Shown: positions 22,133 to 45,041 of the stretch, in pieces
Numbering within the stretch: position 1 is the stretch's first letter
How the letters are laid out: each line of letters starts with the position of its first letter
NCBI GenBank assembly: GCA_965203905.1
Contig: CBDBDQ010000005.1
Span: 3,520,001 to 3,584,000, forward strand
Direction of reading: 5' to 3'
Length of the DNA: 64,000 bases
Origin: Spirochaetia bacterium
GTDB lineage: Bacteria > Spirochaetota > Spirochaetia > SZUA-6 > Bin103
Position numbers and translations under genes: made by a program
The notes under the pieces: model-generated
Database searches by the model: none
The model's input: the letters and a program-made list of their open reading frames with translations, nothing else
What the model was told of the DNA's origin: nothing

Positions 22133-22512
22133 TCAGCCTGACCCAATATAGAAAGTCGTTACGCGAATAGTTACATACAGCCCGCGCTTCAAGACGCGGA
22201 ACTGCGCTTCCGGTAAGTCTTGGGACGGCTTGGGCGTCGCGGCGTCCATCATCCTGACGTGTCCGCCCAGGTTCATCAGGTGCTCGGCCACGGCAGCTGC
22301 CACTGCGGCGTGGTCTCGATCGTTCGGTGCTTGCGACAAAATTGTATTGTAGTTGAAGAAGTGGAGCGCGACGTGCGCCGCGTGGTTCTCCATCTTCTTG
22401 GAGAAGGGGTTGATTAGCCGGGTGTAGCGCCGCATGGACATCCGCATCGTCAGGTTGTTGCGCTCGGCGTAGCTCGTGCTGATCGTGTCGAATTCCGGGA
22501 GCCACTATCGTA
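22133..22512 (-). pseudogene. C-terminal remnant of IS1-like DDE transposase
   Basis: ISTSYAERNNLTMRMSMRRYTRLINPFSKKMENHAAHVALHFFNYN; frameshifted and cut at 22512. Confidence 0.8.
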
Positions 22513-32721: not shown

Positions 32722-33564
32722 CTATCGGCCGGAGTGAGGTCCGGCCGCCGAGTGCGCCGAAGCCGGCACCGCAGGGTCGTGGTCGAGTCCGTGCAACCGC
32801 AGCCGGATCAGCAGGTCCTGCAGCGCGGGCCTGGCGCTCGGCTGCGCCGGCAGGTGGGAGGTATCCGCCGCCGCACGCAGTACGCCGACCAGGCGCTCAT
32901 ACTCCGCCGCATGGAATCGCAGATCGGTGGGAGGCAGGTGGTCCTGTTCCGGGCCGGCGACCTTGCGCGCGATCAGTTCGTCGAGGTAGGGCAGCCTGGC
33001 GCTGTCGTTGAGGGTGCGCAGGTTGGCCTCGACCAGGCCCGTCCGCATCAGGTGAATGCCGGTCAGGAGCACGCGATACACGTACAGCAGCGGCTTGATC
33101 CGCGGTGGCTGCTCGCGCTCGAACAGCTTCCACTGCCCGGCGGCGAACCCGCGATAGTGACGCTCGTGACGGCGCGTCACGCAGTCGGCGGCGATCGTCT
33201 TCAACTCCTCGTGCGCCGGCGTGGTGCGCACGATCAGCGGCGAGTGCACCTGCTCCAGCACGTAACCGTTCGGCTTCAGCAGCAGACCGAAGAACTTGCG
33301 CGCGTCGTGGGTCACCAGATCGATCTCCATCGCGGCAAGCTGGTGCGTCGTCTCGACGGTATCGCCGCCGCCGTCGAGACCGATGACGTGCTCCAGCGGC
33401 AGCAGATGGGCGCCGCGCAGATCGCAGTCGGAGTCCGGCGACGGAAACCCGTACAGATGGGCACCGCTGATGGTGACGAACAGCAGTGGATGAGACTGCC
33501 GGTCCACCAGCCGCTGCAAGCCTGCGTCGCCGGTGAGGTCCGCGCCCGGGGCAGGCGGGCTCAC
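32722..33564 (-). CDS. Nucleotidyltransferase, PF10127/YcgL/RlaP-like
   Basis: SGAHLYGFPSPDSDCDLRG, LLLKPNGYVLE, KPLLYVYRVLLTGIHL. Confidence 0.88.
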   Translation of the reverse strand: MSPPAPGADLTGDAGLQRLVDRQSHPLLFVTISGAHLYGFPSPDSDCDLRGAHLLPLEHVIGLDGGGDTVETTHQLAAMEIDLVTHDARKFFGLLLKPNGYVLEQVHSPLIVRTTPAHEELKTIAADCVTRRHERHYRGFAAGQWKLFEREQPPRIKPLLYVYRVLLTGIHLMRTGLVEANLRTLNDSARLPYLDELIARKVAGPEQDHLPPTDLRFHAAEYERLVGVLRAAADTSHLPAQPSARPALQDLLIRLRLHGLDHDPAVPASAHSAAGPHSGR

Positions 33565-34259
33565 GGCAGTCGATCCTCGACCGCGCGCCGGCGGGCGTGG
33601 ATCAGAAACCGGTCGGCGCGCTCGTAGTCGGGCTGCGCCGGCAGGGTGGTGCGCGCCAGAGCGCAGTCGAACTCAGCAGCCAACTCCCTCCGCCACGCGT
33701 CCACCTCCGGCCACCTGGTCCTGCCCGACCTGACGGCAAGCAGACGCTCCCGGTGTTGGCTCACGTCGACGGCGACGAACCCCTCCTGCAGCACCGTGAT
33801 GCCGGACAGCAGCAGTCGCAGTAGGTGCATGGCGTGGCTCCACTTCACCTGGCCGCGGCTGCGCAGCGCGGTCTGCATACGCCGGAACTGAGACTCCACG
33901 TAGCGGGTGTAGGTCTGGTGCACCAGCTTGGAGAGAAAGCATCCCCGCATGGCGAGCAACTCCTCGCCCAGCGGCGTCGCAGTCTCCACCAGCGGTGTGT
34001 AGAGACACTCCAGGATGTTCGGATTGGCTTTCAAGGCGAGCGTAATGAACTTCTGGAGTTCCCAGTACACCTCCTGGGTGGCCTCGTTCTGCAGTTGCGG
34101 CGGCGCTCCCGCCAGCGACCAGTGCAGGTCGGCGGGCGGTAGATACACGCCACGGCGATCGGTGTCGGAGTCCTCCCGGTCAAGTCCATAGGCGCGTGAG
34201 CCGACCACGCAACGGAGGATCACACGCTCGACCAGATCGGTGACAGGGGCATTGCACAT
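33561..34259 (-). CDS. Nucleotidyltransferase, PF10127/RlaP-like
   Basis: VGSRAYGL..DSDTDRRG, ANPNILE, HAMHLLRLL. Confidence 0.88.
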   Translation of the reverse strand: MCNAPVTDLVERVILRCVVGSRAYGLDREDSDTDRRGVYLPPADLHWSLAGAPPQLQNEATQEVYWELQKFITLALKANPNILECLYTPLVETATPLGEELLAMRGCFLSKLVHQTYTRYVESQFRRMQTALRSRGQVKWSHAMHLLRLLLSGITVLQEGFVAVDVSQHRERLLAVRSGRTRWPEVDAWRRELAAEFDCALARTTLPAQPDYERADRFLIHARRRAVEDRLP

Positions 34260-35214: not shown

Positions 35215-35532
35215 CCCAAGAAGTGATCCCCAGTATGCTCTTCAGCCAGTTCGATCGGTTCGGGACGTACCCTTCCTGTCCGCGTGATTTCAGCCACTCG
35301 GCGATTGCCGCGGTCTCTTCATCGGTCAAGCGGAGCACACGAATGGTTGGCTTGGCTCCGTCGAATACGGAGACGGTACCAGTTCGCCGGTCGGTGTCCC
35401 ATCCACGTTTTATGTCTCCGGCGGGAGTAGCCGGTCCGCCTGCCGCCGGATCTGATGGGAGGTGCGGTAGTTGACCCGTAGCGTGTGCGAGCACCCGCGG
35501 ATTTCGACTCCCAAGGCGCCAGGAGAACGGGT
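35215..35532 (-). pseudogene. Internal fragment of a UvrD-like helicase paralogous to 39399-41480
   Basis: TDRRTGTVSVFDGAKPTIR..DEETAAIAEWLKSRGQEGY; DNA closely resembles about 39790-40062. Confidence 0.85.
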
Positions 35533-36445
35533 ACCTGGCAGAACTGATCGTAGGCTCCCTTGGCCTCGTTCAGGGATCCGGCTTGCCACATCTCACGGAT
35601 CATCGTCTTTGCCTTGCTCGGTACTGACTTTGGCGTTTTGTCCAATAGGTTGCCCGCCTTATGGAACCAACAGATCTGCTCCTGCGTATCCGGATACACT
35701 TCCCGCAACGCCTTCCCGAACCGCCGCGCTCCGTCGGTCGTCGCCAGCCGCGGCCCTACCAACAACCCTCGCCGGCGCAGACTCAACAGCATCTATCGCC
35801 ACGACCCGGTGCTCTCCCGATAACCGTCGCTGAGACCGCCACCAGTTCCTTGTTTCCGTGCTCGTCCGCTCTCATGAGCACCCGGGCGCTACTCCGCTCC
35901 TCATGCAGCCGGACTTTCATGCAGCCCGTCGGCCCCAATACACGTTACCGCTTGCGGCTCAGATCGCGTAGGGTCCACTCCCGCCACTCCTGCTCCCACA
36001 CCGCCTTCAGCCGGGCGATGCTGTTCGCGCTCGGCTCAGGGGCTCCTGCTCCCAGGATCGCCTGCAGCGCGTTCGAGATTCCTCGTCGACACTCCGTTCA
36101 GATACAGCGCCGGTATCAGACTGTCCACACTCGCCACCCGTTTCAGGTGGCGCGGCAGGAACGCGCTAGTGAACCTACCTTCCCGCTGCTTGGCGAGTTG
36201 GCGGTCTCTCGTCCACCTTGTCGGCGTGGTTCCCCACGACCGCGGCTACCTTAGCTTCCACCGCTTGCGCTAGCATCTGCCGTGCTCTTCGACGTGCTAT
36301 CTTCTCCAGCACCCATCTGGGTCTTTGCACCTCGATCTCCTTGAGCACGACATTCTCCACAAGCGTACTCCTGATGATTCGTGGGCCGAATCTCTAATTC
36401 GGGGCGTGTGCTCATTTGTTTCATCCACAACTTCGATCATATCCC
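35533..36445 (-). mobile_element. Degraded IS256 family element (left end plus truncated transposase)
   Basis: RRARQMLAQAVEAKV; PRLATTDGA..FGKALREVYPDTQEQICWFHKAGNLLDK; end-like sequence ATCCACAACTTCGATCATATCCC at about 36423-36445. Confidence 0.78.
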
Positions 36446-36712
36446 CATGCGTCCCTGCAACTTCTTGACGAGGCTCTCCGCTACCGCTACAAGTTCTTTC
36501 GTATTCATGGTATACCTCCCCATGATGTAGTGCTCTGGAGTACGTAGACTTAGTTTTTCTGCGCCAGAATCAACGAATCGCTACCGTCTTAGGCGTTCAC
36601 ACTCAAAAAGAGGACACTTGACCTATCTTGTGAGAATATGATAACATATGGACCATAGTGCAACCTCGTTTGAACAACGACTGAGAACACGGAAACGAGG
36701 TAAGGACTGTTT

Positions 36713-37090
36713 ATGGTACGTATTGGTGCAAGAGTGTGTAGCGGAGATAGCATTAACATAATCGGTAACGGTGATTACCTATTCAAATTCGAGCTTTCGC
36801 TGTCAGGACGAACAACGGAGTGGATTTACAGCAAACCCGAAGAAAACGGAGTGTTGTGTGTCTGCGAGTTGACTGAGGACGACATTCCAGTGGTATTGAA
36901 AGAGTCTGACTATCGGTTTAGAACGGAACCGACTCAGATTCACCTGGACAAATGGGTGTTGTTGAGAAATGTGGCCGGGCACATAGCCGCAATTAGATTG
37001 ACTGCGATTAACGGGAATCGCGACCACACCCATGCGGAGGTCAGGTTTGTTTATGCCATCTTCGAATTGCTTACAAGGGTTGACCGCTAG
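36713..37090 (+). CDS. Hypothetical 125-aa beta-rich protein
   Basis: Low-GC ORF with GAGG/AAGGA upstream; IGNGDYLF..WVLLRNVAGHIAAIRL..EVRFVYAI; 3' end overlaps the convergent 151-aa ORF by 4 bp. Confidence 0.5.
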   Translation: MVRIGARVCSGDSINIIGNGDYLFKFELSLSGRTTEWIYSKPEENGVLCVCELTEDDIPVVLKESDYRFRTEPTQIHLDKWVLLRNVAGHIAAIRLTAINGNRDHTHAEVRFVYAIFELLTRVDR

Positions 37091-37542
37091 GAAGCCCATT
37101 TCGGAATGGGAATTCCGTGCAATCGACATAGTCTGTACTTTCCACGGTCCACAGTCTCGAATTCATTTGTTCGAGAAAAGTATGCGAATATGGCCCCTTC
37201 GGTTCCTAACTGAGCACAGTCGGAGATCATCTTTTTTGCGTATTGTGCGGTAATAGTTCCGTCCGGAGATAGGTTCGCTAGGAAGACTGCTGCTTCACCG
37301 ATGTTCGCCAGCTTCTTCAGAGACTCAATTAGCTCGTTTTCTTTGGCTTCAGCAGTATCGATGGACAGTTGAAGTTGGGCTTGGAACTCCTCTAGACGGC
37401 GTAGGCTATCCGCTAGTTTGTTTCGTTCGGCGTCAAGCGTTTGAAGGGCACTCTTTGTAGCGTGGATATGGGAGATGAAAACTCGGAGCGCGATGCGTTG
37501 CTCCTCAAGACTGACGGATGTGTTTACCAGTGGTGTCACCAT
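37087..37542 (-). CDS. Hypothetical 151-aa protein (coiled coil plus possible winged-helix C-terminus), downstream of the tRNA pair
   Basis: Heptad-rich LQTLDAERNKLADSLRRLEEFQAQLQ; C-terminal FETVDRGKYRL wing-like motif. Confidence 0.62.
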   Translation of the reverse strand: MVTPLVNTSVSLEEQRIALRVFISHIHATKSALQTLDAERNKLADSLRRLEEFQAQLQLSIDTAEAKENELIESLKKLANIGEAAVFLANLSPDGTITAQYAKKMISDCAQLGTEGAIFAYFSRTNEFETVDRGKYRLCRLHGIPIPKWAS

Positions 37543-37623
37543 ACTTGACCTTTTCGCTCAAACGTGTTACATTTGTCAGGCAGCGGGAACGTAGCTGATC
37601 GATATCGTTCGTACTCCAAAGGT

Positions 37624-37707
37624 TGCCGGCGGTGGGAGTTGAACCCACATGCCCCTACAGGCGACCGCTCCCAAAGCGGTTGTGTCTACCAATTCCACCA
37701 CACCGGC
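37624..37707 (-). tRNA. tRNA with Leu-type class II body and TGG (Pro) anticodon
   Basis: GCCGGTG TG GTGG AATTGGTAGA CAC A ACCGC TT-TGG-GA GCGGT CGCCTGTAGGGGCAT GTGGG TTCAACT CCCAC CGCCGGC A; intact cloverleaf, 15-nt variable arm, CCA not encoded. Confidence 0.88.
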
Positions 37708-37713
37708 AGAGAA

Positions 37714-37784
37714 TGGAGAAGACCGGAATCGAACCGGCATCGCAAGATTCGGAGTCAGGCGTGGTACCATTACACTACTTCCCC
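37714..37784 (-). tRNA. tRNA(-like) with G3:U70/A73 (Ala-type) acceptor stem and CCG (Arg) anticodon
   Basis: GGGGAAG TA GTGT AATGGTA CCAC G CCTGA CT-CCG-AA TCTTG CGAT GCCGG TTCGATT CCGGT CTTCTCC A; two mismatches in the anticodon stem. Confidence 0.72.
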
Positions 37785-37796
37785 GCTGTGTTCTAG

Positions 37797-37839
37797 AAAG
37801 GGAGCCTGTGACGTTGCAGCGTTGCGGTGCTCCCTTCTT
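37797..37839. other. Stem-loop between promoter and first tRNA
   Basis: Outer stem AGGGAGC...GCTCCCT; inner arms CTGTGACG/CGTTGCGG pair mainly through G:U on the + strand. Confidence 0.55.
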
Positions 37840-37849
37840 CATGCCCCAA

Positions 37850-37878
37850 AGCGTAATATCAATCCTCACAGTAGGCAA
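37850..37878 (-). promoter_or_regulatory. Sigma70-like promoter for the tRNA cassette
   Basis: Minus strand TTGCCT (37878-37873), 17-bp spacer, TACGCT (37855-37850). Confidence 0.6.
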
Positions 37879-38029
37879 GGGCCGTAGAGAAAAATCTGTG
37901 ATGATGAGCTTACAGGAATCCGAGTGTAGGTGTTAGGTGTTACCTGTCGCAAGGTGGAGCATGACGTAAAGAACCCCGCTGTAGGGGTTTACGGCGGCTG
38001 ATACAGCACCGATACGGTGGTTAGACAAG

Positions 38030-38125
38030 TGTGTTGCTGCGCGGTTTGCAGTTGCGGCAGCGCTTCGGCCCATCGACCATGCAGGTCTGCGGGCGGCAGA
38101 CACACGCCGTGGCGTTCGGTGCCGT
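38030..38125 (-). pseudogene. Short fragment of a PF10127-type nucleotidyltransferase paralogous to 33561-34259
   Basis: RHGVCLPPADLHGRWAEALPQLQ versus RRGVYLPPADLHWSLAGAPPQLQ. Confidence 0.72.
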
Positions 38126-38239
38126 CCCATCGTGCCGGCGGGTCTCGCTGCCAGGGCTGCTCTGATGGGTCAAGACTATGAGGTAAGCGTCCACGCCGCC
38201 ACGCAGCAGGGTGTTCGCCGTCAGTCACAGGTACCGATG

Positions 38240-38974
38240 CTACCAGCCCAGCTTGGTTTGGCGGCTGTGCTTTTGCAGCAACTCGGCGATCGCGTCCTTG
38301 GTCAGGTCGAACACCGAGAAGCCGGCGGCCACCTCTCCCCACATTCGCTTGCCCGCCGCCTGCAGCTTCTCGTTGATCCTGGCGTAGGTCTCCTTCACGC
38401 GCGGATGCTGCGGTTCACCGGGCAGTCCCAGGCTCTGCGCCATGTCCTCGGCTCCGGCGCCGAAGTAGTCGATGCCATCGACCGCGAGAATCTCGTCCAG
38501 GTTCTCCAGGGCCACGATGCTCTCCAATTGCGGCACGATCACCGTGTTGGCGTTGACCTCCTGGAACAGGCGCACGTGATCGCCGTCGACCTGGCCGTGC
38601 ATGGTGGCGATGCTGGTCGCGCTGCGCAGTCCGAGCGGCGCGAAGAAGCTGTACTTGACCAGATCCCTGGCCTGGTCCGCGGTCAGCAGGTTGGGGATGG
38701 TGATCACCCGCACGCCACGGTCCAGGTAACTGAGGATCGTGCTCTCCGCACCGTCCGGGATGCGCATGGAGACGGTCATGCCGTAGGCGTCGGCGACACG
38801 GCACATCTCCCCGATCTCGGCCGGCGTCACCGTGTCGTGCTGGCCATCGAAGGTCACGAAGTCGAGCCCGCACCGGCCGGCCAGCTCCACCAGCAGCCCG
38901 GAGGTCTCTCGGAGCGTCAGCCCGAGCGCCTTCTCGCCGCGCGCCATGCGCTGCAGAATCTGATTGGGAACCAT
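38240..38974 (-). CDS. HpcH/HpaI aldolase family protein
   Basis: GLDFVTFDGQH, FAPLGLRS, PQLES..ALENLDEILAVDGID..GAEDMAQSLG. Confidence 0.9.
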   Translation of the reverse strand: MVPNQILQRMARGEKALGLTLRETSGLLVELAGRCGLDFVTFDGQHDTVTPAEIGEMCRVADAYGMTVSMRIPDGAESTILSYLDRGVRVITIPNLLTADQARDLVKYSFFAPLGLRSATSIATMHGQVDGDHVRLFQEVNANTVIVPQLESIVALENLDEILAVDGIDYFGAGAEDMAQSLGLPGEPQHPRVKETYARINEKLQAAGKRMWGEVAAGFSVFDLTKDAIAELLQKHSRQTKLGW

Positions 38975-39398: not shown

Positions 39399-41480
39399 CT
39401 ACGCGTGGGGCGGGTGCCGATGCTCGACAAGTAGGTCGTCGAGGAACTCGGAGGCCGGTTCCACGCCGGTGACCAGGAGATGATCGCGGGCGCGCGTGCA
39501 TGCGACGTAGAGCAGGTGGCGCTCGGTGGTGTAGACCTCGTCGAGCTCGGCCTGATCGCCGACGCGCTCGATTCTCGCTTGCGACGGCAGCACTTCGTCA
39601 TCACACGCGGCGACGACTACGGCCCGAAACTCCAGGCCCTTGGCGAGGTGCATCGTGCCGACTGCGACGTTGCCCGAAACGCCGCCCGCGTGCTGCGCCA
39701 GATCGACCGCCGAATACTCTGCGGCTTCAACGGAGGCGATGGCTCTGTCCAGTTGGCCCTTCGATCGGACGAACACGCCCATCTCGTGCGGGGTGTACCC
39801 TTCCTCTCCGCGTGATCTCAGCCACTCGGCAATTGCGGCTGTCTCTTCATCGGGCGAGGGCGAGATCCGAATGGTTGGCTCGGCTCCGTTGAATACGGAG
39901 ACGGTGCCAGTTCGCCGGTCGGTGTTGCCGTCCACGTCCGAGGTCTCGGGCGGGAGTAGCCGGTCTGCCTGCCGCCGGATCTGATGGGAGGTGCGGTAGT
40001 TGACCCGCAAGGTGTGCGAGCGCCCCCGGATGTCGATCCCCAAGGCGCGCCAGGAGAACGGGGTCTGGAAGATCCGCTGACCGAGGTCACCGGCAAAGAA
40101 CAGGGCATCGGGGCGCCCGGCGCCGAGCGCAGCCAGGAAGCGCAACTCGGCCACCCCGATGTCCTGAGCCTCGTCGACCACGCAGAACTCGAACGGTGGA
40201 CGATCCATCTTCGCGAGCTGACGCTCCAGACATCCGAACAAGCGCGGCTCGGTCAGGAGCGCATGCTCGTCAAGAGCGGCGGCCACCTTGGAGAAGATCG
40301 ACCAGAGGATCTCTCGCTGCCGTTCCGGCAGGCGAGTCCTGCGACCGAGCCGCGGCACGTCCCGGTACTGTTCCCAGCTTGCAAGCTGCCAGGCATCGAC
40401 CACTCGGCTCCACTCGGTCCAGAGGAAGCGCAAGCTGAACCGGACGTCTCCAACCTTGGCGGCGGCTTGGCGCAACAGCTCGCGCACGCGATCCGGGGTT
40501 GCCAGATCGGGGCGGCCGAAATGTGCCTGGTAGAGGCGCCGCCCGATGTCGGCCATTGCGTGCACCTCCAGCCGCTCGCCGATCTTCGGCTCGTTGGCGA
40601 TGAGTCGCACCACTCGCGCCCGCAACGCATCCGCGAGTGCCGGGGAGAACGTGGTCAGCAGCACGCGCGCGTCCGGATGGGAACGGGCCAGATGCACCGC
40701 TCGGTGCAGCGCCACGATGGTCTTGCCGGTTCCGGCGGATCCTGACACCCGGGCCGGGCCGCGGTAGCTCCGCTCCACTACCTGCCGCTGAGCGGGATGC
40801 AGAAAGACCGTCCACTTCTCCCATGGATACTCAAGCGCCCGTCGCAACTCCTCCTGGTTGGACATGACTCGAAAACGGCGTTGAGCATCGGGATGGGCAA
40901 ATGGATCTCCATCCGTGGCTCCGGGGTCAGGCCGCACCGGTGTGCTCCCGGTAGCAAGCTCCAGCAGCACCTCGGCGGCCTCTGCGGGAAGATGATCCGC
41001 CAGGGCCAGGAGCGCGTCCTCGTCGGCTACCTGCCTGACGTCATCCAGCCACTCGCCGGGCACTCCGTACGCCAACAACTGACTGTCCGCGACGCCGGCG
41101 AACAGGGCGCGTTCGGCAGCGACGTAACGCGGGATCTCGACCTTGCGCACCACTTCGCGGACTTCGACGAGTTGCGCCGCACCGGTGTGGGGATGCTGTT
41201 CGAGGCGCCGGCGTTCCGCCCAGCGATACGCATCGTCGTGCTCTCCGACGTAACAGAGCAGGAGATTGGCCGCCGTCTTGTGCACGATCATGCGGACGCC
41301 GCGATTGACCCGAACCGACCAGAAATTCTTGTCCCTTGCCCGCTCCACCCGATGGAACTGCATCCCCGGCTGTGCCGGATTGAGTTGCAGATCGAATGCC
41401 GTCGTTTTGGCGGCGCGCTGCTCCTCGCCAGGCAGCTTCGCCAGGCTATCCGCAAACGTGTCGGCTATACGGAATTCCAC
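39399..41480 (-). CDS. UvrD/REP-like SF1 helicase with N-terminal RelE-like domain
   Basis: N-terminal FADSLAKL..FWSVRVNRGVRMIVH..YVGEHDDAY; GSAGTGKT; VVDEAQD; HLAKGLEF; LYVACTRAR. Confidence 0.9.
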   Translation of the reverse strand: MEFRIADTFADSLAKLPGEEQRAAKTTAFDLQLNPAQPGMQFHRVERARDKNFWSVRVNRGVRMIVHKTAANLLLCYVGEHDDAYRWAERRRLEQHPHTGAAQLVEVREVVRKVEIPRYVAAERALFAGVADSQLLAYGVPGEWLDDVRQVADEDALLALADHLPAEAAEVLLELATGSTPVRPDPGATDGDPFAHPDAQRRFRVMSNQEELRRALEYPWEKWTVFLHPAQRQVVERSYRGPARVSGSAGTGKTIVALHRAVHLARSHPDARVLLTTFSPALADALRARVVRLIANEPKIGERLEVHAMADIGRRLYQAHFGRPDLATPDRVRELLRQAAAKVGDVRFSLRFLWTEWSRVVDAWQLASWEQYRDVPRLGRRTRLPERQREILWSIFSKVAAALDEHALLTEPRLFGCLERQLAKMDRPPFEFCVVDEAQDIGVAELRFLAALGAGRPDALFFAGDLGQRIFQTPFSWRALGIDIRGRSHTLRVNYRTSHQIRRQADRLLPPETSDVDGNTDRRTGTVSVFNGAEPTIRISPSPDEETAAIAEWLRSRGEEGYTPHEMGVFVRSKGQLDRAIASVEAAEYSAVDLAQHAGGVSGNVAVGTMHLAKGLEFRAVVVAACDDEVLPSQARIERVGDQAELDEVYTTERHLLYVACTRARDHLLVTGVEPASEFLDDLLVEHRHPPHA

Positions 41481-41540: not shown

Positions 41541-44042
41541 TCAGAAATCTGCTGCGACGGTGGTTGCGACTCGATTCGCCACCTCCGCATAGAGATCGAC
41601 ATCGACTTCCGGTGCCCTGATGCTGACAACTAGGGAGTACCGGGCGGCCCGGTCGTAGCGTTCGAGACGCGTACGGGTCTTCCACCATCCCAGCGCAGGA
41701 TAGGCGGCGATACATGCGCGGCTAGCGAGATCAGCGGCGGTTCCACGCCAGATGTCGCTATGGAGGGAACCGCGATGGCGCGCCTGCTTGCCTATCAACC
41801 AATGAGGATCCTCGCCGCTTTGACTGGTTCCCTGCTCTTCGTCGCGCGCGGCGGAGTTTATCCTGGCCCTGAACTCGTCGACGGACTCGTAGGGGCGTTT
41901 GACATCGAAACGGAGACCGTGGGACTCGTAACGGTAGCGGGAACGCCCTCGTTGCGACGGGTTCGGCTCGATGAAGTAGGAGAGTGTGACACGCATCTCC
42001 ACCTCCGTGTCGCCGAGTGATTCCAATGTATCCTGCGGCCAAGGGAGATTATGTAGGTGCATATCGCGGAGCGTGGCTTGTTTGCCTGTCTCTCGCTTGA
42101 AGGGATGCAGGATTTCTTGAACCACCATCGTCAGCGAATTCGCGACGCTCCACAGAGCCCGGTCAAGGTTCGGCACGCCATACCCGCAGCGCCGGACCAG
42201 ACGCCTGTAGTCAGCCTTCTTCGGTTGTGTATTGGTGGGTAAATAGGCACTCCTCATGGCATCAGTCCACTCCGTCGAATGAACGACCAGAGCGCGAATC
42301 GTCTCGGGCCAGAGCGCCGGATATGCGGTCATCAATTGGGCTGACAGGCGTGCAGCCAACGCTGCGGCTGCACTGGTCGCATTTGAAGTAGTAAGCAGGT
42401 TCACCGTCGGGCGATGATGTGTGGTCAGAAGGCTCAGGCTGGGAAGGGAAACCGCGCTCAAACTGTCCTTAGCTGCATTGCCGCCTTCAAGGACTATGTC
42501 CGGCTTCAGCGGCCATTGTGGCGGCCACGTCAGCGAAGTCGTGCTGAACGGGCTCAGACCTCCTCTCGGTGCGATCGACTCATAATCGTCACAGTCGGGG
42601 TCGGTAATCCGTACTCGCTCCGTGTACGCTCCGACGGTCAGCGCGTTCCATGCCTGTGCGGGGTCATGAACGCCGTCAGAATCGTTGCTGTGCGGGTAGC
42701 GAGACCAAGCGTTGGGATCGTCGACGTTACCAGCCGATATGACGAGCAGGCGTGGGTCAGCGCCGTCACCATAGCTATCTGCGGCGAGAGCGTCGACGGC
42801 CGCTGACCAAGCCGACGGACGGCCTCGGTCACGGTCATCACGTGCGGTGACCGCCATTACAAAGACCCGCAACCTATTCGGTGCGGTAACTTCAGGCCGC
42901 GTAACCGCCTGCACCGTGAGATACCCATGGTGTTGTGGATCGGTTCCCCCGCTGCGTCCCTGTGGCAGAAGCTTGACCGACTCTAGCCGGTGGCTCACGT
43001 CCACGTGGGAGCTGCCTGCGAGAAGGTTGGTCAAGTCTCCGGCGAGGGCCAAACCCGCCATCTCCGTACCGTGCCCATTGCTATCTCCAACGCCCCACGC
43101 CGGTTCGACAGTGTGTAGATCGTTCGCAGCAAGCGCGTTCCTGAGCATCGGATGGCCTCGAGTCACGCCGGTATCCAGGATGCACACGTGCGCTATCTCC
43201 GCGGCGTCTTCGGCGAAGGAAGTTCGGGCAAGTAGATCGTCAATCCATTCGTACTGTTCTTCCTGCGGAAGCGAATCGAAGAACTCGGCCGTTTCCTTGG
43301 CACGCCGCAGCTCCGCAACACTGTTCAACGTGAGCATGGACCGTTCCATCTGTTCGACGGATGCCAATACATGCAGTACCGTGCGCTCAGGAAAGCTCAA
43401 CTCACCCGGTGCCACGCGCATGTCCTGCGCTTCCGCAAGATTGCGGAATGTGCCGACGGTTTCGTTTCTGTCCCGCCGAATGGGCAGCCAGACTTCCCAC
43501 CATATTGGTCTTTCCCGTTCCGACGGGAAAGCATCCAGGTCCGTCCATAGCGCTCGAAGGCTTGCGGCACGAATCTCCCGAATTGCGTTGATCAGCCGCT
43601 TGTGGTCAAGAGATCGCCCGATGCGGTCCTGTTTTTCCGCCAAGTAGTCTTCGACAAGGCCTTGGAAGTGAGTGAGCTTCCCATCGGGAACGAATACCGT
43701 GGCGTAGGTTCGACCTTGGTGGTGGCGGACATTCAACAACTCGATGCCGGAGCGGTCCCGTGCCAGGCTCTCGAATGCAAGCTCGATGTCAGGGAAGCTC
43801 TCAAACTCGATCCGAAGTCCGAATCCCTCTTCGAGCCCTGCGTCCTGTTGCGCTACGCGAGCCGCCTCGGCCTCGGACTGAAGCTCCCCAAGCTGCCGCA
43901 TCAAGCCTGCCCCATGCCTCTGGCGGTCGCGCGCCGGGATGGTAGGCCGGCCGCCTCCTTCCTGCGGAGAGCGATATGGCTCAACCTCGGTGACGCCCTC
44001 CAGGATAAAGTGCCGACTTCTCTCCTCCGTCCCGTTTGCCAT
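41541..44042 (-). CDS. ietS: S8 subtilisin-like peptidase, IetS-type
   Basis: ILDTGV, HGTEMAG, ISAGN, NALTVGA, KPDIVLEGGN, ATSAA, GYGVP; directly downstream of an AAA ATPase. Confidence 0.85.
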   Translation of the reverse strand: MANGTEERSRHFILEGVTEVEPYRSPQEGGGRPTIPARDRQRHGAGLMRQLGELQSEAEAARVAQQDAGLEEGFGLRIEFESFPDIELAFESLARDRSGIELLNVRHHQGRTYATVFVPDGKLTHFQGLVEDYLAEKQDRIGRSLDHKRLINAIREIRAASLRALWTDLDAFPSERERPIWWEVWLPIRRDRNETVGTFRNLAEAQDMRVAPGELSFPERTVLHVLASVEQMERSMLTLNSVAELRRAKETAEFFDSLPQEEQYEWIDDLLARTSFAEDAAEIAHVCILDTGVTRGHPMLRNALAANDLHTVEPAWGVGDSNGHGTEMAGLALAGDLTNLLAGSSHVDVSHRLESVKLLPQGRSGGTDPQHHGYLTVQAVTRPEVTAPNRLRVFVMAVTARDDRDRGRPSAWSAAVDALAADSYGDGADPRLLVISAGNVDDPNAWSRYPHSNDSDGVHDPAQAWNALTVGAYTERVRITDPDCDDYESIAPRGGLSPFSTTSLTWPPQWPLKPDIVLEGGNAAKDSLSAVSLPSLSLLTTHHRPTVNLLTTSNATSAAAALAARLSAQLMTAYPALWPETIRALVVHSTEWTDAMRSAYLPTNTQPKKADYRRLVRRCGYGVPNLDRALWSVANSLTMVVQEILHPFKRETGKQATLRDMHLHNLPWPQDTLESLGDTEVEMRVTLSYFIEPNPSQRGRSRYRYESHGLRFDVKRPYESVDEFRARINSAARDEEQGTSQSGEDPHWLIGKQARHRGSLHSDIWRGTAADLASRACIAAYPALGWWKTRTRLERYDRAARYSLVVSIRAPEVDVDLYAEVANRVATTVAADF

Positions 44043-44051
44043 GGATTGTGC

Positions 44052-45041
44052 TCAGGTGGTCAGGCGGGTGGCGATGCTGCGGCGTTCTTCGAGCATCGCG
44101 GTGATCTTTGCTTCTCCGACGAGCCCCGACTTGGAGTTGATCAGCGCATCCTTCAAGGCTTCGTCAGCGGCGCGCGAGATGTCGGCGTGACTCAGCCCTG
44201 TCGCGGTGGCAGCCAGCCGACTCCATGAGACACTCGTGACTACGGTTCGGGCCAGGCGCGTCTTCAGCAGCTCTGCGATCTGAGCCTCATCGGGCATGTC
44301 GTAGTGGAGTACGTCGTCGAACCGTCGAAAGAGCGCGGGATCGAGAATCTCGAAGTGATTGGTTGCGGCGATCACAAGGCTGTAGGAGCGTTCCTGTTCG
44401 ATCATCTGGAGAAAGCTGTTCAGCACTCGGCGGATCTCGCCCACATCGTTGGTGAGGCCACGTTGCGAGCCGATGGCGTCGAACTCGTCGAAGAAGTACA
44501 CGCCTCGCATGCGGCTCGTGGAGTCGAACACCTGTCGAAGCCGTGCGGCGGTCTCTCCCATGTATTTGGTGATCAGCCCGTCCAGGCGTACCTGCAGCAG
44601 CGCGAGCCCGAGTTCGGCTGCCAGCACTGACGCGGTCATCGTCTTGCCGGTGCCCGGGGGACCGACCAGGAGGAGCTTGCTCCGGGGGACGAGGCCCTGC
44701 TCGATGATGCGCCCGGCATGGCGCTGCTCGCGGATCACGCGCTCTATCTGCTGCGCAAGGGGATTGCTCAGGATCATTTGACGGAGGCGGGCTTTCGGGT
44801 ACGAAGTCTCCAGGAGGCTTGCTGAAGCTCCGTGCGGTCGGTCTGCCGACACGTGTCCGAGCGGCCGTGGGGGACGTCCATTCTTGGCCTCGTCTACCAG
44901 AGCCCGCAACTCGACGGCGAGCTTGCCATGCCCGAGCTTGGCCTCATGCGCCGCCACCTGCATGGCGACCGAGAGGAATCGCTCGTCGTCGCCCTTGATG
45001 TGCGACCTGAGCAGCGCCTTGATCTGTTCAGCGCTGGCCAT
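44052..45041 (-). CDS. ietA: AAA+ ATPase, IetA-type
   Basis: GPPGTGKT, KYMGET, FFDEFDAIG, AATNH..LDPALFRRFD. Confidence 0.87.
   Translation of the reverse strand: MASAEQIKALLRSHIKGDDERFLSVAMQVAAHEAKLGHGKLAVELRALVDEAKNGRPPRPLGHVSADRPHGASASLLETSYPKARLRQMILSNPLAQQIERVIREQRHAGRIIEQGLVPRSKLLLVGPPGTGKTMTASVLAAELGLALLQVRLDGLITKYMGETAARLRQVFDSTSRMRGVYFFDEFDAIGSQRGLTNDVGEIRRVLNSFLQMIEQERSYSLVIAATNHFEILDPALFRRFDDVLHYDMPDEAQIAELLKTRLARTVVTSVSWSRLAATATGLSHADISRAADEALKDALINSKSGLVGEAKITAMLEERRSIATRLTT

Follow-up and report, generated by a model that had tools for sequence, protein, structure and literature searches.

Why does a bacterium that retains ordinary leucine and proline transfer RNAs (tRNAs) carry a further tRNA gene with a leucine body and a proline anticodon, and why does this gene lie just upstream of a small gene for a putative DNA-binding protein? 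The question is raised by a cassette on the minus strand of a 64,000-nucleotide (nt) stretch of contig CBDBDQ010000005.1, from a Spirochaetia bacterium with a genome of about 8 Mb and 66% guanine plus cytosine (GC). The whole stretch is called the window below, and coordinates are positions in it. The cassette consists of two tRNA genes, tRNA1 and tRNA2, and an open reading frame (ORF) of 151 amino acids, ORF151. The gene of most interest, tRNA2, is of the leucine (Leu) type with the proline (Pro) anticodon UGG, and tRNAs of this build recur on mobile and viral DNA in several phyla. We regard the locus as a real, selected and mobile tRNA module that is probably mistranslating. The fuller form of this reading is a mobile two-gene module, made of the Leu-type tRNA(UGG) and a small coiled-coil/winged-helix protein, which would cause leucine-at-proline mistranslation under the control of ORF151; it is our leading explanation, with a chance slightly short of even. 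Judged from its sequence, the window copy includes two further parts, the conserved gene P0002, which is convergent, and an additional tRNA, perhaps impaired, with an alanine-type acceptor and the anticodon CCG. The elements of the unit are as follows.

37850..37878, minus strand: weak promoter-like hexamers TTGCCT-N17-TACGCT, agreeing with consensus at 7 of 12 positions
37796..37838, minus strand: GC-rich stem-loop, about 10 nt upstream of tRNA1, a predicted fold
37714..37784, minus strand: tRNA1, 71 nt, anticodon CCG (arginine); ARAGORN, Rfam 56 bits
37708..37713, minus strand: 6-nt spacer between tRNA1 and tRNA2, read from the sequence
37624..37707, minus strand: tRNA2, 84 nt, class II, Leu-type, anticodon UGG (proline); ARAGORN, Rfam 55 bits
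37087..37542, minus strand: ORF151 (P0001), 151 amino acids, long helix plus winged helix in its model, member of an unnamed small family
36713..37090, plus strand: P0002, a conserved 125-amino-acid ORF, convergent with ORF151 and overlapping it by 4 nt at the ORF151 stop
36500..38000, no strand: low-GC patch containing the whole unit, by its composition foreign DNA in a genome of 66% GC

The order along the minus strand, as read from the sequence, is therefore hexamers (37878-37850), stem-loop (37838-37796), tRNA1, tRNA2 and ORF151. The two tRNA genes are the only ones reported by ARAGORN in the 64-kb window, as Arg(CCG) at 37714-37784 and Pro(UGG) at 37621-37708, both on the minus strand. 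They match the Rfam tRNA model RF00005 over its full extent (1-71) with 56 and 55 bits, where the gathering score is 29. A preliminary description of the locus, made from the letters alone, had proposed tRNAs of 71 and 84 nt, a 6-nt spacer and a co-oriented ORF about 80 nt further on; ARAGORN, Rfam and a reading of the sequence bore this out, with ORF151 starting 81 nt past the end of tRNA2.

Among the 57 other ARAGORN calls of the host genome, the top five matches of tRNA2 are the five host Leu tRNAs. It has the long variable arm (15 nt), the D arm of host Leu tRNAs and A73 that are expected of a tRNA-Leu, on canonical 7/5 acceptor/T stems; a Leu anticodon (NAG/NAA) is absent, the anticodon loop being UUUGGGA with G37. 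Measured against tRNA-Pro, it has G35, G36 and A73 and lacks C1:G72 and the short class-I variable loop: it opens with G1:C72, whereas the host Pro tRNAs begin with C and are 73-74 nt long. CCA is encoded by neither cassette tRNA, and by 1 of the 52 host tRNA genes examined. The host tRNA set retains Pro(UGG), Pro(CGG), Pro(GGG), Arg(CCG), three Ala (alanine) and five Leu tRNAs. Because the normal Pro(UGG), Arg(CCG), Ala and Leu tRNAs are all kept, tRNA2 is an extra gene.

The UGG anticodon is not an assembly slip. A contig of sample X1 spans 36000-38311 with 0 differences, contigs of X3, another sample of the same study, span 37225-37729 and 37753-38540 with 0 differences, and no variants are listed between 36000 and 38271. 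The comparison is one of contigs, not of reads, and X1 is possibly the source sample; within these terms the check for sequencing error came out clean, the contigs of two samples being identical across tRNA2.

Which amino acid tRNA2 carries decides what it would do at the ribosome. The bacterial-type prolyl-tRNA synthetase (ProRS) of E. coli reads G72 and A73 together with the anticodon, and G35, G36 and A73 are the main determinants for ProRS. The host ProRS is likewise of the bacterial type with an editing domain (proS family II), and since tRNA2 has C72, it is expected to be a poor substrate of this enzyme. The leucyl- and alanyl-tRNA synthetases (LeuRS, AlaRS) do not read the anticodon, as stated in the part of PMC11028032 drawn on here. 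Given that its Leu features are kept, that LeuRS is blind to the anticodon and that C72 disfavours ProRS, tRNA2 is expected to carry leucine, and so to place leucine at CCA and CCG codons. By a rough codon proxy, CCA plus CCG make up 63% of host Pro codons, CCG being the commonest of them, and CGG makes up 28% of arginine (Arg) codons.

A pattern combining the Leu D arm with a UGG loop was searched in the genomes of 185,579 species, one genome each, and gave 16 loci. Five of these are full-length long-arm Leu-type/UGG tRNAs, in metagenome-assembled genomes of Methylocystis, another alphaproteobacterium, Acidobacteriaceae, Phycisphaeraceae and Jatrophihabitans, and 4 of the 5 are reported by the Rfam gathering scan. 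The remaining 11 are 5' halves of Leu tRNAs running into unrelated sequence, or fragments inside tRNA arrays. On viral contigs a slightly relaxed pattern gave 10 loci, three of them canonical by ARAGORN and four not such tRNAs; a further three loci, with two distinct sequences, look by eye like Leu tRNAs with UGG, their variable arm measuring about 30 nt. These counts, and the constancy of UGG, are partly a matter of construction, as one D-arm pattern and the loop, UGG or GUC, were prescribed in the searches. Closer to the host, a genome of the same family and another genus (G017) has one Leu-type/UGG tRNA in addition to its canonical Leu(UAG) and Pro(UGG). Across the order the pattern was present in 2 of 92 genomes, and a phylum sample of 401 genomes gave 1, the host genome itself.

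The copies with the arm of about 30 nt lie at approximately 7789-7892 in L046 (identical in L048) and 4841-4944 in L047; their arm looks branched and ARAGORN does not call them.

Seven Leu-type/UGG tRNAs were aligned. All 140 of 140 stem positions are paired, 14 of the 20 pairs occur as two or more pair types, and 13 of these 14 have changed on both sides; A73 is present in 7/7 copies and G1:C72 in 6/7, tRNA2 included. Because all stems stay paired through compensatory changes and A73 is constant, the comparison establishes, as far as an alignment can, that these tRNAs are under selection for tRNA shape. The preliminary description had argued that the anticodon swaps were unlikely to be random decay, and for the Leu-body/UGG tRNA, which recurs with compensated stems on mobile DNA in several phyla, this view is upheld. 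tRNA2 shares 80% identity with the copies of G017 and Phycisphaeraceae, 79% with an alphaproteobacterial one, 73% with two others and 68% with one, against 62-69% with the five Leu tRNAs of its own host. Its greater nearness to foreign copies than to host Leu tRNAs, together with the patchy distribution in order and phylum and the low-GC patch in which it lies, shows by comparative criteria that Leu-type/UGG tRNAs have spread horizontally on mobile or viral DNA across several phyla.

The alignment also bears on the charging question, since a recurring tRNA with G35, G36 and A73 could be a remoulded proline tRNA: a Leu-like body charged with proline through these three bases, serving a mobile element or phage in GC-rich hosts as an extra tRNA-Pro(UGG) and causing no mistranslation. 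The G37 of the window copy, as in Pro tRNAs, the C1:G72 of one relative (L019), the rank of CCG as the commonest host Pro codon and the several copies on viral contigs would all suit such a tRNA. The G1:C72 of 6/7 aligned copies including tRNA2 does not, nor does a host ProRS of the bacterial type. Position 37 is A in 5 of the 10 canonical copies where Pro tRNAs have G, nothing in the D arm, A73 or long arm has departed from the Leu type, and the host already possesses Pro(UGG), Pro(CGG) and Pro(GGG). We therefore consider proline charging without mistranslation unlikely, and leucine charging the better expectation.

Related loci contain further odd tRNA-like genes, recorded here as observations in their own right. 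L015, L016, L024, L025, L026 and L028 are tRNA-Leu 5' halves that end inside the anticodon loop and then give way to structured sequence that is unrelated; tRNA-Leu genes with introns are a possible identity for them, and the Rfam gathering scan reported no intron family there. L044 (approximately 773-900) is a tRNA-Leu-like gene in which a long perfect hairpin replaces the anticodon arm, with an integrase gene some 200 nt downstream. Viral contigs also carry long-arm tRNAs of the Leu type whose anticodon is GUC, for aspartate (L051, 203-293; L053, 4245-4332; L059, 470-566), and L058 and L060 are Leu-type/GUC with a very long variable arm and are not called by ARAGORN; no ORF151-family gene was found beside the Leu-type/GUC copies on viral contigs. 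The host itself carries a second odd tRNA-like gene outside the window, at C5:4211301-4211376 on the plus strand (L066, 252-327), with an Arg-like body and the anticodon UUA, which would read the stop codon UAA. It has U56, an imperfect anticodon stem and an Rfam score of 43.6 bits; promoter-like hexamers and a hairpin precede it, a low-GC stretch follows it, and IS1595-like remnants (C5:4214104-4215013) lie about 3 kb away.

Transposon genes are frequent neighbours of the Leu-type/UGG copies. An IS1595-family transposase was identified by Pfam within 1.5 kb of the tRNA in L019, L022 and L027, and by eye in L043 also; the G017 copy has an IS1-like gene at its flank, and 1 kb separates the L040 copy from an integrase. 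Such company, and the position of the host's UUA gene near IS1595-like remnants, would be in keeping with a role outside decoding, in which the tRNA would be a target for integration or recognition, would lure or sense nucleases directed at tRNAs, or would act as a regulatory RNA to which the winged-helix protein binds, while the UGG would be a specificity tag or have no meaning of its own. RNA binding is within the reach of winged helices, and many of the allo-tRNA(UAU) species of soil bacteria, which are associated with transposons or toxin-antitoxin loci, are probably unused in translation according to the main text of Mukai et al. (2017, PMC5389517). Against such a role, the features needed for charging and decoding are kept, namely A73, the T loop, U33, stems of 7/5 and a purine at position 37. 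UGG is moreover common to copies that differ at most stem positions, in part by construction as the searches required the loop, and no att-like repeats lie beside the window unit. On balance a non-decoding role seems improbable to us, to about the same degree as a remoulded proline tRNA, and decoding remains the preferred function of tRNA2.

The first tRNA of the cassette is a different case. The acceptor stem of tRNA1, GGGGAAG/CTTCTCC followed by A, has the full alanine set of G1-C72, G2-C71, G3:U70, G4-C69 and A73. Its body is not Ala-like, host tRNA-Ala tying with Gly, Gln and Leu tRNAs in similarity: the D and anticodon arms share 78% identity, over 50-58 nt, with tRNA-Gln(CUG) from relatives in the order, and the T arm matches tRNA-Gly(UCC). 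The preliminary description had both tRNAs pairing an aminoacylation body with a non-cognate anticodon, which is right for tRNA2 and weaker for tRNA1, where the acceptor alone is of the Ala type and the body is Gln/Gly-like. The geometry is canonical (7/5). The anticodon stem CCTGA/TCTTG has two adjacent non-pairs; in comparison with the Gln tRNAs, the 3' strand is the same and two bases of the 5' strand are changed. The minimum-energy fold of tRNA1 is not a cloverleaf (z 0.15). For arginyl-tRNA synthetase (ArgRS), A20 in the D loop is a determinant in E. coli. The D loop of tRNA1, AAUGGUA, has U at position 20 and not A, and C35 and G36 are present; an ordinary tRNA-Arg(CCG) on a phage contig, with the same D-arm/loop pattern and without G3:U70, also lacks A20. 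No relative combining G3:U70 with CCG was found in the genomes of relatives or on viral contigs. From these features the charging enzyme of tRNA1 may be AlaRS, ArgRS, both of these or neither one, and the gene may have little activity or be in decay. A design with two independent swaps in one transcript, as had been proposed, is not a conserved one, as tRNA1 was found only here and is a mosaic with a damaged anticodon stem.

The state of tRNA1 brings up decay or artefact as an explanation for the whole unit, namely that dying tRNA copies persist on a degraded mobile element, or that an error of sequencing or assembly altered the anticodon. Besides the two broken anticodon-stem pairs, mosaic body and missing relatives of tRNA1, the setting of the unit amid transposase fragments and the U56 and imperfect anticodon stem of the host's UUA gene agree with decay. 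For tRNA2 this explanation meets intact stems, identity in the contigs of two samples and recurrence with compensatory changes in other phyla, and both ORF151 and P0002 are conserved. As an account of the locus it appears very improbable; for tRNA1 alone it is plausible, with nearly the standing of our leading explanation for the module.

The protein partner was next characterised by its predicted structure. The AlphaFold2 (AF2) model of ORF151 has a mean predicted local distance difference test (pLDDT) score of 85.7 and consists of a long helix (residues 12-76) and a winged helix (residues 81-138), the C-terminal elements being helices 81-91, 99-109 and 115-124 and strands 128-132 and 135-138. 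This is the three-helix bundle with a beta-hairpin wing that defines a winged helix. The best Foldseek matches of the wing domain were forkhead and Rok DNA-binding domains (probability 0.98-0.99, E 0.04-0.05). The VIA comparison gave Z 8.1 with a root-mean-square deviation of 3.1 over 62 residues, and many bacterial regulator domains matched at middling scores. The coiled coil plus winged helix foreseen in the preliminary description thus agrees with the AF2 model, Foldseek and VIA. In the model the wing is a generic nucleic-acid-binding fold; Rok, HARE-HTH and MarR/PadR are all candidates for its subfamily, with middling structural scores. Protein-atlas matches reached at most 0.87, and HARE-HTH, annotated on 19% of one cluster, added no function. 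ORF151 has no Pfam family, no PHROG family and no useful PADLOC match; a PADLOC match to LmuB (4e-4, residues 12-92) was taken as coiled-coil similarity only. From its modelled fold, ORF151 is probably a DNA-binding regulator of the cassette.

Three close homologues of ORF151 were found, with 73%, 62% and 54% identity, and a profile search of 1.8 billion representatives gave 11 matches at E <=0.001, two of which are long coiled-coil proteins. A single-sequence search found no match in 60 other genomes, and it missed the G017 homologue that was later found by profile. The search for loci, made with a narrower alignment (A3) as the wide one (A2) was too diverse, found no ORF151-homologue loci in genome, metagenome or viral contigs by profile, and tblastn found none in plasmids or phages. 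The cassette DNA gave only partial matches to ordinary tRNAs in relatives.

Starting from the tRNA copies instead, a same-strand ORF with a coiled coil and winged-helix-like region lies beside the tRNA in 7 of 12 distinct loci, two of them (L022, L049) by eye; the contexts of the closest ORF151 homologues (P0003-P0005) and of P0018 fall outside this tally. In G017 a 172-amino-acid ORF begins 48 nt after the tRNA and matches the ORF151 family profile at 3e-7 (BLASTP 20% identity, E 4e-4 in a small set), and beyond the tRNA and this ORF the G017 and window neighbourhoods have nothing in common. In L040 a 138-amino-acid ORF begins 25 nt after the tRNA, and in its low-confidence model the N-terminus is a long helix and the C-terminus combines helices with strands. 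L017 and L023 have homologous ORFs (7e-19) with weak regulator-type matches and a winged-helix-like C-terminus just upstream of the tRNA on the same strand, as do, by eye, the similar-looking ORFs of L022 and L049. A single protein family for all neighbour ORFs was considered and not borne out: hhalign of the ORF151 profile with the upstream ORFs of L022 and L023 (L022u, L023u) gave a probability of 0.4%, and the profile matches only G017. Weak BLASTP links among the neighbour ORFs (4e-4, 0.002 and 0.17) come from a tiny database. Neither P0016 nor the L040 ORF yielded further homologues or loci. Co-occurrence of ORF homologues with mismatched tRNAs, envisaged at the outset, was thus realised in G017, with its UGG tRNA directly upstream of a remote homologue, and profile matches beside a tRNA were confined to that genome.

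P0002, the convergent neighbour of ORF151, has homologues with 72% and 60% identity, no family match and protein-atlas matches to unnamed clusters only. The contig bearing its 72% homologue is 34,448 nt long, and so is the contig bearing the 62% homologue of ORF151. Because both contigs have this length, the two genes probably travel together.

We also considered the DNA around these genes. GC content is 0.45-0.53 over 36500-37999 and 0.59-0.72 on either side, which confirms the low-GC patch reported before. The 43-nt stem-loop was confirmed as well (37796-37838, -16.9 kcal/mol, z -2.9, with 1 of 200 shuffles as stable). As a hallmark of such loci a leader hairpin was rejected, the mean upstream minimum free energy of 13 odd tRNAs being -22.8 compared with -19.7 for 49 ordinary host tRNA genes (Mann-Whitney p 0.15). 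The promoter TTGCCT-N17-TACGCT of the preliminary description fared worse. Its hexamers are present but were not among the sites of the promoter scan, which numbered 2 versus 1.6 expected by chance, both on the plus strand. The following genes flank the unit.

35319..35792, minus strand: fragment of a Mutator-family transposase (Pfam PF00872, 7e-10, profile positions 215-298 of 379)
39399..41480, minus strand: UvrD/GajB-like helicase (Pfam; PADLOC NERD+UvrD, 1e-23)
41541..44042, minus strand: IetS subtilase (Pfam; PADLOC IetS, 1.1e-32)
44052..45041, minus strand: IetA ATPase (Pfam; PADLOC IetA, 5.2e-75)

The transposase fragment is about 1.3 kb from the cassette. IetA and IetS are adjacent and co-oriented, as in the Iet defence system, which is known to act against phages, and the helicase is directly downstream. 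These genes lie 1.9-7 kb from the cassette; this is proximity alone, and no functional link to the cassette was seen. A search for flanking direct, inverted or att-like (attachment-site-like) repeats around the window unit gave nothing convincing, and no synthetase gene is among the ORFs annotated in the 29.6-46.9 kb part of the window. Elsewhere in the window, 33561-34259 on the minus strand encodes an RlaP-family nucleotidyltransferase of the RNA-repair-associated DNA polymerase beta family (Pfam 2e-41), with ORFs of 625 and 207 amino acids without family as its neighbours, and 22346-22498 on the minus strand holds a fragment 55% similar over 51 amino acids to the IS1-like transposase beside the G017 tRNA copy.

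Taken as a working device, the cassette would operate as follows. One transcript starting ahead of the hairpin would cover the tRNAs and ORF151; RNase P and the enzymes of 3' processing would free the tRNAs from it, and CCA would be added as for the host tRNAs. LeuRS, blind to the anticodon, would charge tRNA2 with leucine by way of A73, the Leu-type D arm and the long variable arm, and the bacterial-type ProRS of the host, finding no G72, would charge it poorly. Leu-tRNA(UGG) would then put leucine at CCA and CCG proline codons throughout the proteome. tRNA1, if functional, would be charged by AlaRS through G3:U70 and would deliver alanine at CGG arginine codons. ORF151, as a dimeric winged-helix protein, would most likely keep transcription of the cassette low. 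Stress-induced mistranslation, toxin-like growth arrest and abortive infection are candidate benefits.

Several findings weigh against this leucine-at-proline module. G35, G36 and A73 of tRNA2, being main ProRS determinants too, make partial or mostly proline charging possible, and its relative in L019 carries C1:G72. tRNA1 was seen only at this locus, and its anticodon stem is damaged. When set against the regions upstream of ordinary tRNA genes, the leader hairpin does not stand out (p 0.15), and the promoter match, at 7 of 12 consensus positions, is at chance level. Four of the 12 loci are without a coiled-coil/winged-helix-like ORF, the L019 contig being too short to tell, and the neighbour ORFs of different loci could not be united in one family. 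ORF151 and its analogues show no avoidance of CCA/CCG codons, and the 0 CGG among the 9 Arg codons of ORF151 is not significant in a low-GC gene.

A bolder extension of the leading explanation would make these elements widespread mobile "tRNA toxins", in which a winged-helix partner silences a Leu-charged, Pro-reading tRNA (with cousins such as the GUC type) that is released upon infection, stress or loss of the repressor, the missense poisoning serving as an abortive-infection or addiction module. We hold this for rather unlikely, more so than either proline charging or a non-decoding role.

Very few cases of deliberate mistranslation by dedicated bacterial tRNAs have been characterised, namely the allo-tRNAs and tRNAProX. 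Beside these the cassette is a compact and directly testable candidate of a different build, a canonical Leu tRNA re-aimed at abundant Pro codons and often accompanied by a possible switch gene. If the reading is true, mobile elements carry regulated, proteome-wide missense devices, and a natural part for leucine-at-proline decoding comes with a candidate regulator. If tRNA2 is charged with proline instead, it would be a clear bacterial case of a tRNA identity change with the foreign body kept. In the literature searched, supplements being outside its scope, we did not find a Leu-type tRNA(UGG) described together with a winged-helix protein.

The nearest known systems are the allo-tRNAs and irregular tRNA polycistrons of soil bacteria, natural tRNAs whose anticodon is mismatched to their charging identity (Mukai et al. 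2017, PMC5389517). According to the main text of that paper, some have G3:U70 and are charged by AlaRS in E. coli, and induced missense-suppressor allo-tRNAs arrest the growth of E. coli. They resemble the cassette in the mismatched anticodon, in the G3:U70 and polycistronic arrangement of some members, and in their location near transposon-related genes and toxin-antitoxin loci. In contrast to both cassette tRNAs, which are 7/5, they have 8/4 or 9/3 acceptor/T stems and mostly Ser identity. tRNA2 is of the Leu type with UGG, and "UGG" and "LeuRS" each occur 0 times in the main text of PMC5389517, whose supplements may list such tRNAs; nor do the passages of it used here mention a conserved winged-helix partner gene, which the cassette has in ORF151.

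The tRNAProX/ProRSx pairs of Streptomyces and Kitasatospora share with the cassette a tRNA co-encoded with a dedicated protein partner, as described in the part of PMC11415595 used here. There a Pro body with Ala, Asn or Thr anticodons brings proline to other codons, and the cassette is the opposite, a Leu body with a Pro anticodon; the partner there is a synthetase, a ProRS paralogue, whereas that of the cassette is a small protein of the DNA-binding type. Finally, engineered or spontaneous anticodon variants of tRNA-Leu, tRNA-Ala and tRNA-Ser mistranslate (PMC11028032, PMC10543346, PMC6827378, each as far as covered here). They follow the same logic, LeuRS, AlaRS and seryl-tRNA synthetase (SerRS) ignoring the anticodon, and a single A35G change is enough to convert UAG to UGG. 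Those variants are laboratory constructs or sporadic eukaryotic alleles, whereas the kind to which tRNA2 belongs is a conserved, horizontally spread gene of bacteria and viruses with a linked protein gene.

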